A DNA stretch of 4,846 nt from a virus (IMGVR_UViG_2713896779_000029), one strand, 5' to 3'. Numbered from the stretch's first letter, positions 1-4,846 are shown. The notes: generated by a model not told the origin, from the sequence alone. Numbers and translations are program-made.

Positions 1-1
1 G

Positions 2-82
2 AGGAAAGACCTCTGCGAGGTACGAATCCGAACCGGCCAGACGGAGGTCGCTGTCTTCGTAGACTACGAATCTGAGAAGTAA
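2..82 (+). CDS. Possible 3' end of an upstream CDS (5' truncated by window edge), product unknown
   Basis: Frame 2 is open from the window edge to TAA at 80-82 and translates to a protein-like tail (...TGQTEVAVFVDYESEK). The other two + frames are Arg-rich or stop earlier. A stable stem-loop follows 8 nt downstream. No family recognised. Confidence 0.25.
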   Translation, partial: RKDLCEVRIRTGQTEVAVFVDYESEK

Positions 83-199: not shown

Positions 200-547
200 A
201 TGAAAAAAGTATTAATCGCAGCCCTTTTTTCCTGCGTGTCTTTTGGCGTTTTTGCACAACAGGGAGGTTTTCTGGGGTCTGAAGCAGAGCGTTCAACAAC
301 AGTAGTGCAGGCAAAAGAACAGAAGGACGAGGCATGGGTTATCCTTGAAGGGCACATCGTTAAAAAATTGGGTGATGATCGTTATGAGTTTCGCGACAGT
401 AGCGGAACCATTGTCACGGATATCGATGAAAGTGTATGGGCCGGGCAGAATGTGTCTCCGGAAGATAAGGTAATAATCGAGGGTGAACTTGATAAAGACC
501 TGAACAGTGTTGAACTGGATGTAAAAACGCTGAAATTATTAAAGTAA
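200..547 (+). CDS. YgiW/YdeI-family (BOF, bacterial OB-fold, DUF388-like) secreted protein
   Basis: ATG at 200 preceded by AGGA-containing RBS (gaggacgataATG); stop TAA 545-547. N-terminal signal peptide MKKVLIAALFSCVSFGVFA followed by QQGGF. Conserved family pattern W-V-x-L-x-G-x-I-V, DD-x-Y-x-F-x-D-x-SG-x-I, DID, GE-x-DKD-x-NSVE-x-DV matches my recollection of E. coli YgiW. Confidence 0.9.
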   Translation: MKKVLIAALFSCVSFGVFAQQGGFLGSEAERSTTVVQAKEQKDEAWVILEGHIVKKLGDDRYEFRDSSGTIVTDIDESVWAGQNVSPEDKVIIEGELDKDLNSVELDVKTLKLLK

Positions 548-900: not shown

Positions 901-950
901 NNNNNNNNNNNNNNNNNNNNNNNNNNNNNNNNNNNNNNNNNNNNNNNNNN
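901..950. other. Assembly gap / masked segment (50 N)
   Basis: Run of exactly 50 N; true length and content unknown. Confidence 1.
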
Positions 951-2019: not shown

Positions 2020-2476
2020 ATGCCTATAGATTTGGTTTTACCTTACCCGCCAACGGTGAACACCTACTGGCGTCGTCGTGGCAGTACATATTTTATCTCG
2101 GAGGAGGGAAAGCGTTATCGCCGGGCAGTGGCGCTTATTGTTCGCCAGCAGCGGCTGAAATTAAGCCTGTCCGGAAGGCTGGCGATAAANNNNNNNNNNN
2201 NNNNNNNNNNNNNNNNNNNNNNNNNNNNNNNNNNNNNNNAAATTAAGCCTGTCCGGAAGGCTGGCGATAAAGGTGATTGCAGAGCCACCGGATAAGCGCC
2301 GTCGCGACCTGGACAATATTCTGAAAGCACCGCTGGATGCGCTGACGCATGCGGGAGTGCTCATTGATGACGAGCAGTTTGATGAAATCAATATTGTACG
2401 TGGTCAGCCAGTATCTGGTGGACGACTGGGTGTGAAGATTTACCAAATAACGCATGAAGGACAGGCCCAAAAATGA
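2020..2476 (+). CDS. rusA: RusA-family Holliday junction resolvase (crossover junction endodeoxyribonuclease), interrupted by an N gap
   Basis: ATG 2020 preceded by aagagg RBS. N-terminal LPYPPTVNTYWRR and C-terminal PDKRRRDLDNILKAPLDALTHAGVLIDDEQ...SGGRLGVKI match RusA hallmarks (LPWPPS, RRRDLDN with catalytic Asp, DALT, DD, GGRL). Removing the N run plus one copy of the flanking 32-bp repeat joins the two halves in frame to give about 124 aa. Confidence 0.85.
2158..2271. repeat. Perfect 32-bp direct repeat (2158-2189 and 2240-2271) flanking a 50-N gap; probable unmerged contig-end overlap
   Basis: aaattaagcctgtccggaaggctggcgataaa occurs identically on both sides of N run 2190-2239. Confidence 0.8.
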
Positions 2477-3294
2477 AACTGGAAGATTTACCGAAGTACT
2501 ATTCACCAAAATCCCCCGGCCTGACAGATGCCTCTGCCTCGACGTCAAAAGATGCGCTGAGTATCACTGATGTGATGGCAGCGCAGGGCATGACACAGAA
2601 TCGGGCTGAGATGGGGTTTTCTGCGTTCCTTGGGAAAATGGGCATTAGTATGAATGACAGAGAGCGGGCAACAGAATTGCTGACAGAATATGCACTCAGT
2701 CGGTGTGATTGCGTGGCGGCGTTAAGAAAACTCCCGGCAGAAATAAAACCGGCAGTGATGCGCATTATGGCTTCGTATGCGTTTGAAGATTATGCCCGTA
2801 GCGCGGCGAGCAAAAAACAGTGCCCCTGCTGTCACGGAAAAAAATTTATTGAAAGCGAGGTTTTTACAAACAAGATCCAGTATCCGGATGGTAAGCCGCC
2901 AGTATGGGCAAAGTGCACAAAAGGCGTGTATCCGTCTTACTGGGAGGAATGGAAAAAAGTCAGGGAGGTGGTAAAAGTTGCCTGTCCGGAGTGTGGCGGA
3001 AAGGGGGAGGTTTCCACAGCCTGTAAAGATTGTCGTGGGCGCGGTGTTGCCATTCATCGTGAAGAGTCGGAAAAACAGGGTGTGCCGGTTTTCAGAAACT
3101 GTCAGCGTTGTGGTGGGCGTGGCTATGAAAGATTACCTTCAACGGAGGCATTTAATGCCATATGTAATGTAACCGATGCCATATCTCTTGATACATGGAA
3201 AAAAACAGTTAAACGTTTTTACGATACGCTGGTGGTGCAGTTTGATATTGAAGAAGCATGGGCAGAACAACAACTGAAAAAGGTGACCAGATAG
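2473..3294 (+). CDS. Q: Late-gene antiterminator Q (lambda Q family) with expanded zinc-binding region
   Basis: ATG 2473 overlaps the rusA stop (ATGA at 2473-2476); stop TAG 3292-3294. Blocks shared with lambda Q as I recall it: SPKSP, TDVMAA-GM, F/YxDYxRSAA, CxDCxGxG, CxRCxGxGYxRxP, and the C-terminal WxxTVKxxYDxLVVQ...VTR. It is 273 aa against 207 aa for lambda Q. Confidence 0.9.
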   Translation: MKLEDLPKYYSPKSPGLTDASASTSKDALSITDVMAAQGMTQNRAEMGFSAFLGKMGISMNDRERATELLTEYALSRCDCVAALRKLPAEIKPAVMRIMASYAFEDYARSAASKKQCPCCHGKKFIESEVFTNKIQYPDGKPPVWAKCTKGVYPSYWEEWKKVREVVKVACPECGGKGEVSTACKDCRGRGVAIHREESEKQGVPVFRNCQRCGGRGYERLPSTEAFNAICNVTDAISLDTWKKTVKRFYDTLVVQFDIEEAWAEQQLKKVTR

Positions 3295-3299
3295 CTTTG

Positions 3300-3342
3300 T
3301 TGATTTTTCCCGAATCTGTGGTAAATTTCCCCTAACGATGGG
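3300..3342 (+). promoter_or_regulatory. pR'-like late promoter with sigma70-dependent pause element (Q-utilisation region)
   Basis: -35 TTGATT (3300-3305), 16-bp spacer with TG at 3319-3320, -10 TAAATT (3322-3327), then 6 nt, then AACGATGGG (3334-3342). Lambda pR', from memory, has TAAATT-N6-AACGATGGG with identical spacing. Located 6 bp after the Q stop codon. Confidence 0.7.
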
Positions 3343-3376
3343 CTTTTTATGCCTGACGTTAGAAGATTTTTTACAC

Positions 3377-3398
3377 CCCGCCGCCAGGCGGGTTTTTT
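3377..3398 (+). terminator. Rho-independent terminator (tR'-like), about 45-65 nt downstream of the pR' start
   Basis: GC stem cccgcc (3377-3382) and ggcggg (3387-3392), loop gcca, followed by TTTTTT (3393-3398). Confidence 0.8.
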
Positions 3399-3503: not shown

Positions 3504-3553
3504 NNNNNNNNNNNNNNNNNNNNNNNNNNNNNNNNNNNNNNNNNNNNNNNNNN
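3504..3553. other. Assembly gap / masked segment (50 N)
   Basis: Run of exactly 50 N inside the tR'-to-methyltransferase intergenic region. Confidence 1.
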
Positions 3554-3693
3554 ATTTGTGGTAAATGGGCGGCTGGTGGGTGTTAGGGGCACTCACCAGC
3601 CATCTGCTCATGCGTCTGGATCACAAGCAAACCTCAGGCCCACTGCTTTGCGCAAAAGCAGAATGAGCCTATCAGAGACAGGCTTAATGATCC

Positions 3694-4752
3694 ATGCTTA
3701 ATACTGTAAAAATATCCAGTTATGAGTTAATCAACGCCGACTGCCTGGAATTTATGCGGTCGTTACCCGAAAATTCTGTTGACCTGATAGTCACGGACCC
3801 GCCGTACTTCAAAGTGAAACCCGCGGACTGGGATAACCAGTGGGTGGGTGATGAAGATTACCTGAAGTGGCTGGACCAGTGCCTTGCGCAGTTCTGGCGG
3901 GTGCTGAAACCAGCCGGAAGTCTTTACCTGTTCTGTGGCCATCGCCTGGCATCTGACACCGAAATCATGATGCGTGAGCGGTTTAACGTACTGAACCATA
4001 TCATCTGGGCAAAGCCGTCCGGACGCTGGAACGGGTGTAACAAGGAAAGCCTGCGGGCGTATTTTCCGGCCACAGAGCGCATTCTGTTCGCGGAACATTA
4101 TCAGGGGCCGTATCGCCCGAAAGATGATGGCTGTGAGGCGAAGGGCAGGGCACTGAAACAGCATGTGATGGCCCCGCTGATTGCTTACTTTCGTGATGCG
4201 CGCGCTGCCCTGGGGATAACGGCAAAACAGATTGCAGATGTCACAGGAAAGAAAAACATGGTGTCGCACTGGTTCAGTGCCAGTCAGTGGCAGCTGCCGA
4301 ACGAAAGCGATTATCTGAAATTACAGGCCCTGTTTGCCCGGGTGGCAGAAGAGAAGCATCAGCGCGGTGAACTGGAATGGCCACACCACCAGCTGGTCAG
4401 TACATACAGTGAACTGAGCCGACAATATGTCAGCCTGCAGGAAGAGTATAAAACCCTGCGGCGTTATTTTTCCGTATCGGCTGCGGTTCCTTATACGGAT
4501 GTGTGGACGCACAAACCCGTACAGTACTATCCCGGGAAACATCCGTGCGAAAAACCGGCAGAAATGCTGCGGCAGATAATCAGTGCGAGCAGTCGTCCGG
4601 GTGACCTGATTGCAGATTTTTTCATGGGGTCAGGTTCAACGGTAAAAGCGGCGCTGTCACTGGGACGTCGGGCGATTGGTGTTGAGCTGGAGACCGGACG
4701 TTTTGAGCAGACAGTCAGGGAAGTTCAGGATTTTATCAGTCAGAACGGATGA
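3694..4752 (+). CDS. DNA methyltransferase, N6-adenine/N4-cytosine type, beta class (motif IV before motif I); orphan, no adjacent restriction endonuclease
   Basis: ATG 3694, stop TGA 4750-4752. N-terminal ELINADCLEFMRSLPENSVDLIVTDPPYF carries catalytic motif IV (DPPY). C-terminal HPCEKPAEMLRQII...GDLIADFFMGSGSTVKAALSLGRRAIGVELE carries motif X plus motif I (FxGxGS/T SAM-binding). About 250 aa between them serves as the target-recognition region. Confidence 0.9.
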   Translation: MLNTVKISSYELINADCLEFMRSLPENSVDLIVTDPPYFKVKPADWDNQWVGDEDYLKWLDQCLAQFWRVLKPAGSLYLFCGHRLASDTEIMMRERFNVLNHIIWAKPSGRWNGCNKESLRAYFPATERILFAEHYQGPYRPKDDGCEAKGRALKQHVMAPLIAYFRDARAALGITAKQIADVTGKKNMVSHWFSASQWQLPNESDYLKLQALFARVAEEKHQRGELEWPHHQLVSTYSELSRQYVSLQEEYKTLRRYFSVSAAVPYTDVWTHKPVQYYPGKHPCEKPAEMLRQIISASSRPGDLIADFFMGSGSTVKAALSLGRRAIGVELETGRFEQTVREVQDFISQNG

Positions 4753-4792: not shown

Positions 4793-4846
4793 GGCCCTTT
4801 AGCTCAGTGGTGAGAGCGAGCGACTCATAATCGCCAGGTCGCTGGT
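4793..4846 (+). tRNA. tRNA with CAU anticodon, most like tRNA-Ile2 (ileX/ileZ type); 3' part truncated by the window edge
   Basis: ggcccttTAGCTCAGTGGTGAGAGCgagcgaCTCATAAtcgccaggtcgctggt: acceptor stem, D-arm (AGCTCAGTGG-GAGAGC) and anticodon loop CTCATAA with CAT at 4826-4828. Near-identical over the available part to my recollection of E. coli ileX. Elongator tRNA-Met cannot be fully excluded without the complete gene. Confidence 0.8.

Follow-up and report, generated by a model that had tools for sequence, protein, structure and literature searches.

A probably non-specific adenine methyltransferase gene of the M.EcoGII family, and the structured leader preceding it, in the late region of a probably defective Escherichia coli O121:H19 prophage

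Introduction

M.EcoGII is a 349-aa beta-class DNA methyltransferase (MTase) encoded by a prophage of E. coli O104:H4 (Murray et al., 2018; PMC5778455). It modifies adenines whatever the surrounding sequence, with dsDNA, ssDNA, RNA and hybrids among its substrates (PMC5778455). The enzyme belongs to what has been called 'a very large family', of which the MTase of phage 1720a-02 was described as 'very similar' (PMC5778455). Context-free adenine methylation has been characterised for M.EcoGII, Anc291 and SUPREM only (PMC5778455, PMC11551740), the last of these (SUPREM/Anc284) being an engineered ancestor in which non-specificity is retained (PMC11551740). The nearest site-specific relative of the clade is M.PflMI, which has ~27% identity to M.EcoGII (PMC11551740). 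M.EcoGII is a dimer in size-exclusion chromatography, and its AlphaFold2 model comprises a Rossmann core (residues 1-134 and 260-349), a four-helix bundle with a helix-turn-helix (HTH; residues 160-237) and a long charged linker (PMC11551740).

M.EcoGI and M.EcoGII are unexpressed in the lysogen, with no detectable methylation there (PMC5778455), and uninduced cells of O111 STEC carrying homologues have no extra methylation motif (PMC6602927). Expression of M.EcoGII slows growth, both M.EcoGI and M.EcoGII are toxic on plasmids, and an anti-restriction role has been proposed (PMC5778455, PMC12707154). Plasmid DNA modified by M.EcoGII transforms E. coli 10^4-10^5-fold worse (PMC5778455), so that heavy methylation is not wholly an advantage. 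The family itself has thus been published already, along with its biochemistry, its location in prophages and its proposed anti-restriction role, and to that extent the finding on the MTase described here is already known; the position of the M.EcoGII family between Q and tRNA genes is in the literature as well. Here, we place a member of this clade from an E. coli O121:H19 prophage among its relatives, and describe the leader and the small partner gene that accompany it, which appear undescribed.

Results

The DNA analysed (the window; 4846 nt) is 100% identical to E. coli O121:H19 chromosomes, for example that of RM8352 (NZ_CP028110.1, 1298868-1303789), and its parent 45-kb neighbourhood (L001) is a lambdoid prophage adjoining potC. 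Coordinates below are those of the window unless given as L001, and every feature located by them is on the plus strand. The prophage begins with an integrase, exonuclease and kil, followed by early genes split by IS66, and continues with Hok/Gef, a YgiW-type OB-fold protein, DUF968/HNH, RusA and Q. Next come a 65-aa ORF, the MTase gene and genes for tRNA-Ile, tRNA-Arg and tRNA-Arg, and finally a TerB pseudogene, a NanS-like esterase, a holin, two IS3, a lysozyme, two IS600, a truncated portal gene and tail genes. The prophage lacks stx, whose position is taken by the TerB pseudogene. With five IS copies (IS66, two IS3 and two IS600), the truncated portal gene and several pseudogenes, the prophage is probably defective. 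The window contains three masking runs of N, one of which (3504-3553) consists of 50 N standing for 224 bp (L001 23406-23629), a length derived from the coordinate offsets on both flanks relative to L001; it hides the 65-aa ORF and terminator 2. The annotation has no restriction endonuclease gene up to 20 kb to either side of the MTase gene, and none is present in the masked DNA, which bears out an earlier note on this sequence that had described the MTase as an orphan lacking a restriction partner. PADLOC returned generic MTase_II models only at the locus, with no partner matches. The DUF968/HNH gene was considered as a hidden restriction partner and rejected, its product being a common protein of the lambdoid nin region whose variation is independent of the MTase. 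At the far end of the window lies the 5' part of a tRNA gene (4793-4846) with a CAU anticodon, called tRNA-Ile by PGAP and tRNA-Met by ARAGORN; because the gene is cut by the window end, ARAGORN made no call in the window and the tRNA was recovered in the parent record, where two tRNA-Arg genes and then terminator 3 follow.

The MTase ORF (3694-4752) begins with ATG and encodes 352 aa (WP_000935558.1), a predicted beta-class N6-adenine DNA MTase of the M.EcoGII family. Motif IV, DPPY (aa 35-38, nt 3796-3807), precedes motif I, FFMGSGS (aa 309-315, nt 4618-4638), which gives the beta-class order, and motif X, HPCEKP, is found at nt 4540-4557. PF01555 (N6_N4_Mtase) matches residues 29-340 (E=4.3e-43; score 148.3 bits, Pfam gathering threshold 26.7), and PHROG 'DNA methyltransferase' families match with E values of ~1e-100. 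In a sequence search of the PDB, M.RsrI was matched at E=3e-23 over residues 15-144 and 282-331, and M.RsrI, CcrM and M.MboIIA each align in two blocks (E=1e-15 to 1e-23), the aligned blocks overall covering residues ~8-144 and ~262/282-345. The protein falls below the NCBIfam equivalog cut-offs (PRK11524.1, 108.7 bits against 292; CcrM, 73.2 against 830). The assignment as a beta-class amino-methyltransferase, already made in the earlier note, is therefore upheld by the motif order, the Pfam match and the resemblance of both halves to solved beta-class enzymes. The same note had left ~250 aa between the motifs unassigned, and this figure has to be reduced: residues 39-144 and ~262-308 are part of the conserved catalytic core (PDB alignment; PMC11551740), so that the family-specific insert amounts to ~120-135 aa (about residues 145-281). 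The HTH-containing central domain would occupy aa ~160-237 (nt ~4171-4404; limits from PMC11551740). An AlphaFold2 model of the MTase, built from a shallow alignment of 16 sequences, reached a pLDDT of 49.7 and was too weak for a fold search; at this low confidence it has helices at residues 147-173, 177-184, 204-223 and 231-257, as in the published M.EcoGII model (PMC11551740). Both catalytic motifs, IV and I, are intact, the 15 allele-specific substitutions all lie outside DPPY and FxGxG, and dN/dS is ~0.18-0.22 against relatives and ~0.1-0.2 family-wide. Judged by this purifying selection and the intact motifs, the gene looks functional.

The protein is identical to M.EcoGII at 314 of 349 positions (90%) in a full-length alignment that takes in the HTH domain and the charged linker, with two gap positions and an ungapped central region, the reference having been machine-read from the supplement of PMC11551740 and so possibly containing small errors. 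The ~35 substitutions are mostly at aa ~211-270 and at the C-terminus. Identity to the phage 1720a-02 MTase is 316/352, and that to the reconstructed ancestor SUPREM/Anc284 is 70%. By sequence, the ORF is a member of the M.EcoGI/M.EcoGII clade, and these identities, with M.PflMI at only ~27% to M.EcoGII, place it well inside the group demonstrated to be non-specific. The earlier note had the central region reading a target motif; a protein this close to two non-specific enzymes most likely has no motif, and by analogy with these homologues the MTase of this prophage most likely methylates adenine in any context.

Upstream, the late antiterminator gene Q (2473-3294; annotated 'antitermination protein') encodes 273 aa that match PF03589 (E=3e-51) and, weakly, a DnaJ-like CXXCXGXG zinc finger. 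It is followed by a pR'-like late promoter (3300-3342) with a -35 element TTGATT (3300-3305), an extended -10 element TGgTAAATT (3319-3327) and a -10-like pause element AACGATGGG (3334-3342). Aligned with lambda pR', the stretch GGTAAATTT-N5-AACGATGGG is identical, and the element, eight bases past the Q stop codon, is presumably active as a promoter. Three hairpins resemble intrinsic terminators. Terminator 1 (tR'; 3377-3398, L001 23279-23294) has the form CCCGCC-GCCA-GGCGGG followed by TTTTTT, terminator 2 (L001 23606-23623 plus a T-run) is masked and coincides with the end of the 65-aa ORF, and terminator 3 (L001 25131-25150) comes after the tRNA genes. All of these elements, from Q and pR' through terminator 1, the small ORF, terminator 2, the MTase gene and the tRNA genes to terminator 3, are on one strand. 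In IMG/VR loci with other Q genes, homology starts at terminator 1 (L001 23277-23290) and stops after terminator 3 (~25151-25166), and by these boundaries terminator 1, the small ORF, terminator 2, the leader, the MTase gene, the tRNA genes and terminator 3 behave as a late-leader cassette. Prophages of Pantoea, Klebsiella and Salmonella likewise have Q, the small ORF, the MTase and the holin in this order, with three Q families (PF03589, PF06530 and one unassigned), and so do the viable phages SfV and mEp460; the tRNA genes are confined to the E. coli/Stx lineage and are absent from the cassettes of Pantoea, Klebsiella, Salmonella, SfV and mEp460. The MTase gene is thus late-operon cargo between tR' and a tRNA gene, as had been noted earlier, with pR' and a terminator upstream on the same strand and a tRNA gene from 4793. 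Since two terminators precede it and no promoter of its own is recognisable, the MTase gene would be transcribed only by Q-modified polymerase. From this anatomy we infer, we believe soundly, that its expression is late and Q-dependent, which would agree with the silence of close homologues in lysogens (PMC5778455, PMC6602927, PMC12707154). The simple promoter scan that we used needs 9/12 matches and missed pR' at 8/12; such a scan is insensitive, and an internal promoter for the MTase is accordingly conceivable.

The 65-aa ORF (L001 23422-23619; WP_000917750.1, phrog_331), which starts MLKQQDMTETARVVFNELS, encodes a winged-helix-like protein with sub-threshold Pfam matches only, all to winged-helix families (TrmB, E=0.004; MarR_2; DprA_WH), and with no sequence relative in the PDB below E=0.1. 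Lambda orf-64 was considered as a homologue and rejected for want of any similarity. The ORF lies ~150 nt upstream of the MTase gene in all 77 of 77 IMG/VR loci and is present in 61 of 82 species-representative MTase loci, with 40-50% identity in Xenorhabdus and Photorhabdus; SfV orf47 and mEp460 gp52 (51% identical) are its counterparts. Between genera it is 80-83% identical where the MTase is 75-77% identical, and it may regulate the cassette.

Between terminator 2 and the MTase ATG lies a structured leader of ~140 nt (3553-3693). Its 5' domain (3556-3641) contains GUGGUAAAUGGGCGGC, a long hairpin, GCUCAUGC and UCACAAGCAAACC, and its 3' domain (~3636-3693) forms a long hairpin, the base of which, AUGAUC, directly adjoins the AUG. 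The paired base of this hairpin (GAUCA/UGAUC) ends 1-2 nt before the MTase AUG, which has no clear Shine-Dalgarno sequence. Covariance models of the leader (R1) and of the 5' domain (R2) match 3553-3699 (133 bits) and 3556-3641 (78 bits), respectively, and the leader of the window folds with a minimum free energy of -63.3 kcal/mol (z=-4.3). The leader is as conserved across genera as coding sequence and is kept in most loci that lack the 65-aa ORF. In an alignment of 57 diverse leaders, compensatory changes were counted in 9 of 12 pairs of the long hairpin P2, and a second helix has one pair that varies between CG (27), UA (13), AU (11) and UG (5), and is never unpaired. Helix cells are paired in 93% of cases, against at most 46% when the partners are slid by 1-3 columns, and the covariation values were reached by none of 500 shuffles. 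On this covariation, the leader structure is supported as real. The conserved AUGGGC can pair with either GCUCAU (99% paired) or GCCCA (99%), and several of the helices are mutually exclusive or would be pseudoknotted, which suggests a possible switch. Searching L001 23150-25300 against Rfam 15 at E<=1 gave three tRNAs only, and the leader was without a match, so that a known riboswitch, including all SAM/SAH classes, is not supported. Among IMG/VR matches to the signature of the domain junction (3' domain), an MTase homologue follows at a fixed distance in 111 of 111. A conserved sigma-70 promoter at the 5' end of the leader (TGTGRAAAUGGG) was considered and rejected, the TGTG-AATGGG spacing varying by 1-3 nt and the candidate -10 hexamers often lacking A(-11) or T(-7).

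The leader covariance model gave a weak match upstream of lambda S, and direct alignment revealed clear homology of the MTase leaders with regions 55-170 nt upstream of the holin gene in lambda, P22, epsilon34 and ES18, the lambda element being at about 45017-45101 of NC_001416. The blocks shared by MTase leaders and lambdoid holin leaders are GUGAAA-(A/G)(U/C)GGG(C/U)GGC with a hairpin, and GCC..UGC(C/U)C(A/G)UGC with UCAC(A/G)(A/G)(A/G)C(A/G)AA(C/U)C, and in lambda a UA-to-CG double change preserves the AUGGGC/GCUCAU helix. The lambda version of the 5' domain occurs in 184 phage records. An 85-nt model of the 5' domain matches once per locus, on the plus strand and always before the first late ORF, which is the MTase where present and otherwise the holin, encoded by S of lambda and by gene 13 of P22. 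No second copy of the 5' domain was found before the holin in MTase-carrying phages with the covariance model. Given the single copy per locus, the MTase ORF, together with its own 3' leader domain, has apparently been inserted between the element and the lysis genes. The hairpin was rejected as a conserved terminator, as lambda has GUUUUG after it and the P22 and MTase-type leaders have no U-tract. The lambda, P22 and Trabulsiella versions of the leader have no Rfam match, and nothing relevant to a late-leader element was found in the open-access literature searched. Luk and Szybalski reportedly dealt with the tandem late terminators of lambda in 1983, and that work may cover the lambda hairpin.

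Of 5426 complete E. coli genomes, 1902 (35%) carry MTase-like DNA, amounting to 2633 copies, up to five per genome, nearly all of them chromosomal. The exact allele (at least 99% identity) is restricted to nine records. The family extends across Enterobacterales: protein relatives that are 73-93% identical occur in Citrobacter, Klebsiella, Salmonella, Enterobacter, Cronobacter, Pantoea, Erwinia and others, relatives that are 62-67% identical occur in Xenorhabdus, Photorhabdus and Ewingella, and 2969 protein clusters are related to the MTase at E<=1e-10. Deposited phages with the region are mostly Stx2a/c/d-converting, with the annotation 'DNA methylase', 'hypothetical protein', tRNA.

Discussion

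We consider it likely that the ORF at 3694-4752 encodes a non-specific m6A enzyme of the M.EcoGI/M.EcoGII clade that is carried as a Q-dependent gene of a late cassette, between tR' and the lysis genes of lambdoid phages, and serves in anti-restriction. In the mechanism that we envisage, the MTase, probably acting as a homodimer like its homologue, would use SAM to methylate adenine at N6 irrespective of sequence context, gripping DNA through the positively charged HTH four-helix bundle and the charged linker rather than through base-specific contacts. Late after induction, Q-modified RNA polymerase would read through from pR' and replicating phage DNA would be methylated in bulk, protecting progeny from the many restriction systems of types I, II and III that m6A blocks. 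Both the toxicity of the enzyme and its silence in the lysogen are presumed from its homologues, and such silence would spare the host chromosome toxic hypermethylation. The leader could act as an additional, post-transcriptional gate, possibly together with the winged-helix protein. The anti-restriction role would be in keeping with general knowledge of such modification. For the O121 copy itself, protection of progeny DNA is doubtful because the prophage appears defective, and the gene may at present be a silent passenger there.

A sequence-specific orphan MTase whose central domain reads an as yet unidentified motif, as the earlier note envisaged, would fit the RefSeq/NCBI name of the clade ('site-specific DNA-methyltransferase'), the helix-turn-helix of the central domain (PMC11551740) and the partial clustering of allele differences from M.EcoGII in and after that domain. 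Against this, the demonstrated non-specific enzyme is 90% identical with no gap in the central region, reconstructed ancestors are non-specific down to ~70% identity, and the closest site-specific enzyme reaches only ~27% (M.PflMI against M.EcoGII; PMC11551740), so that we regard a specific target as very unlikely. The possibility that RNA, be it late transcripts of the phage or its neighbouring tRNAs, is the biological substrate instead of DNA seems to us the most improbable of the explanations considered: M.EcoGII does methylate ssRNA and RNA:DNA hybrids in vitro (PMC5778455), and in the E. coli lineage three tRNA genes are directly 3' of the MTase gene, but the cassette does without tRNA genes in Pantoea, Klebsiella, Salmonella, SfV and mEp460, and the ~12-fold variation in RNA activity among variants was read by its authors as a promiscuous activity drifting neutrally (PMC11551740).

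Two further explanations concern not the target of the enzyme but its use. Low-level expression in the lysogen might make the MTase an epigenetic regulator of host genes, given that pR' is expected to be constitutive, that some read-through of the terminators could occur, and that other prophage MTases, for example M.EcoGIII, reshape host transcription (PMC6602927). Two terminators and a structured leader without a Shine-Dalgarno sequence nevertheless stand upstream of the gene, methylation by M.EcoGI and M.EcoGII is undetectable in the native lysogen, O111 lysogens have no extra motif, and non-specific methylation is toxic (PMC5778455, PMC12707154); such regulation is, in our judgement, highly improbable. 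We also think it unlikely, if less markedly so, that the gene is a functionless, never-expressed relic in the O121 genome. The IS elements, truncated portal gene and pseudogenes of the decaying prophage would be compatible with a relic, as would the presence of three MTase copies in the RM8352 genome. However, ORF, leader, Q and pR' are intact and identical in the O121:H19 genomes that match the window at 100%, the family-wide dN/dS is low, and the question bears on present use only, leaving the identity of the protein unaffected.

More tentatively, we propose that the structured leader and the winged-helix protein are undescribed gates that hold a toxic MTase untranslated until late in the lytic cycle, in a manner resembling Mu com/mom, and that the 5' domain represents a late-leader element common to lambdoid phages and a new RNA motif of the lambda late operon. 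Taken as a whole, we consider this proposal possible but rather doubtful. The covarying late-leader RNA of lambda and P22, which are two of the best-studied phages, has no Rfam family and could outweigh the enzyme in importance. The MTase gene is itself widespread, with one to five copies in about one-third of complete E. coli and carriage by many Stx phages, and prophage induction could consequently flood cells and virions with context-free m6A. Methylation of this kind bears on how toxin-converting phages evade restriction, on m6A-dependent defence systems and on how methylomes are read. The public name of the clade is misleading, its characterised member having no site.

Phage Mu carries mom, a gene for DNA modification that is toxic and kept silent in the lysogen, and com encodes its translational activator. 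An EcoSal review lists Mom alongside M.EcoGII as silent and toxic (PMC12707154). The O121 locus would resemble com/mom by analogy, with a small ORF just upstream and a leader hairpin abutting a start codon that lacks a Shine-Dalgarno sequence. Unlike com/mom, however, it has no sequence relationship to that system, its chemistry is different, and its small protein is winged-helix-like rather than a zinc finger; moreover, a terminator and ~150 nt separate the small ORF from the MTase gene, and the ORF is missing in 21 of 82 loci that keep the leader.

Much closer are M.EcoGII and M.EcoGI of the O104:H4 C227-11 prophages, which are prophage-borne orphans with the same DPPY...FxGxG order and a length of 349 aa against 352 aa (PMC5778455); compared with M.EcoGII, the O121 MTase has a C-terminus that is three residues longer, ending ...FISQNG. 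The same cassette, with Q, small ORF, MTase and then tRNA genes and stx or the holin, is found in 1720a-02, phiP27, SfV (MTase orf48), mEp460 (MTase gp53) and many Stx2a/c/d phages, but whereas these are inducible or viable, the O121 copy resides in a prophage that lacks stx and is probably defective. The alpha-class promiscuous phage adenine MTases of Drozdz et al., as they are presented in PMC5778455, share m6A of relaxed specificity and a proposed anti-restriction role, yet have the opposite order, FxGxG...DPPY, and an unrelated architecture. M.PflMI (CCANNNNNTGG) shares the predicted fold overall, including the HTH-type recognition domain, but not the long charged linker of M.EcoGII (PMC11551740). 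In M.RsrI, CcrM, M.MboIIA and M.PvuII the Rossmann core aligns around motifs IV-VIII and X-I, and these enzymes, all of which are site-specific, have no counterpart of the central ~135 residues (~145-281) of the O121 MTase.

The leader RNA and the methyltransferase cassette

The M.EcoGII-type adenine methyltransferase gene (window 3694-4752, plus strand) is directly preceded by a conserved, structured leader of approximately 140 nt (window 3553-3693), which runs up to a start codon that has no clear Shine-Dalgarno sequence. This leader contains helices that covary as well as pairings that are alternative or pseudoknotted; no match was found among Rfam families. When the two-domain junction signature of the leader was used as the query, a methyltransferase homologue followed it in all 111 IMG/VR hits. 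A GATC sequence, the Dam site (window 3688-3693), abuts the ATG of the methyltransferase gene on its 5' side, is kept in at least 90 % of leaders and contributes to the helix at the base of the 3' hairpin. Protein database records label members of this methyltransferase clade 'site-specific DNA-methyltransferase', yet the characterized member, M.EcoGII, is without sequence specificity.

The mask at window 3504-3553, which corresponds to positions 23406-23629 of L001 (the 45 kb neighbourhood in the parent record), covers both the second intrinsic terminator and a 65 aa winged-helix-like ORF (WP_000917750.1, phrog_331). This ORF co-occurs with the methyltransferase in all 77 close loci and in 61 of the 82 distant loci, and the pair is also present in phages SfV and mEp460. 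Comparison with loci carrying other Q genes placed the mosaic breakpoints at L001 23277-23290 (window 3375-3388) and at approximately 25151-25166, the latter beyond the end of the window. These positions fall at terminator 1, after the late promoter pR', and terminator 3, after the tRNA genes, so that terminators bound the methyltransferase cassette. Upstream, the -10 and pause element of pR' (GGTAAATTT-N5-AACGATGGG, window 3319-3342) is the same as that of lambda, but the Q protein encoded here (window 2473-3294), which weakly matches a DnaJ-like zinc finger, belongs to the PF03589 type and not to the PF06530 type found in the Klebsiella loci.

The prophage and its nin-region cargo

The prophage as a whole (L001 5500-44922) is decayed: IS66 is present in the early region, two copies each of IS3 and IS600 lie in the lysis and head region, the portal gene is truncated and a TerB pseudogene occupies the position where Stx phages have stx. 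The genome contains three copies of the methyltransferase gene. Two genes sit in the nin region as cargo: one for a Hok/Gef toxin, represented in the window by its 3' end (window 1-82), and one for a secreted YgiW/YdeI-type OB-fold protein (BOF, PF04076; window 200-547). The first mask (window 901-950) stands for about 34 bp where a 90 aa hypothetical ORF meets a DUF968 ORF. RusA appears split in the window because a duplicated 32 nt stretch (aaattaagcctgtccggaaggctggcgataaa) flanks the second mask (window 2190-2239); in the parent record it is an intact gene of 375 nt.

Relationship to other lambdoid phages

A stretch of 85 nt in the 5' part of the leader (window 3556-3641) has homologues that precede the holin genes by 55-170 nt in lambda (NC_001416, approximately 45017-45101; 1218-1302 of locus L083), P22 (903-987 of locus L286), epsilon34 and ES18. 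With one copy per phage, ahead of the first late ORF, this element may represent an undescribed late-leader RNA motif.
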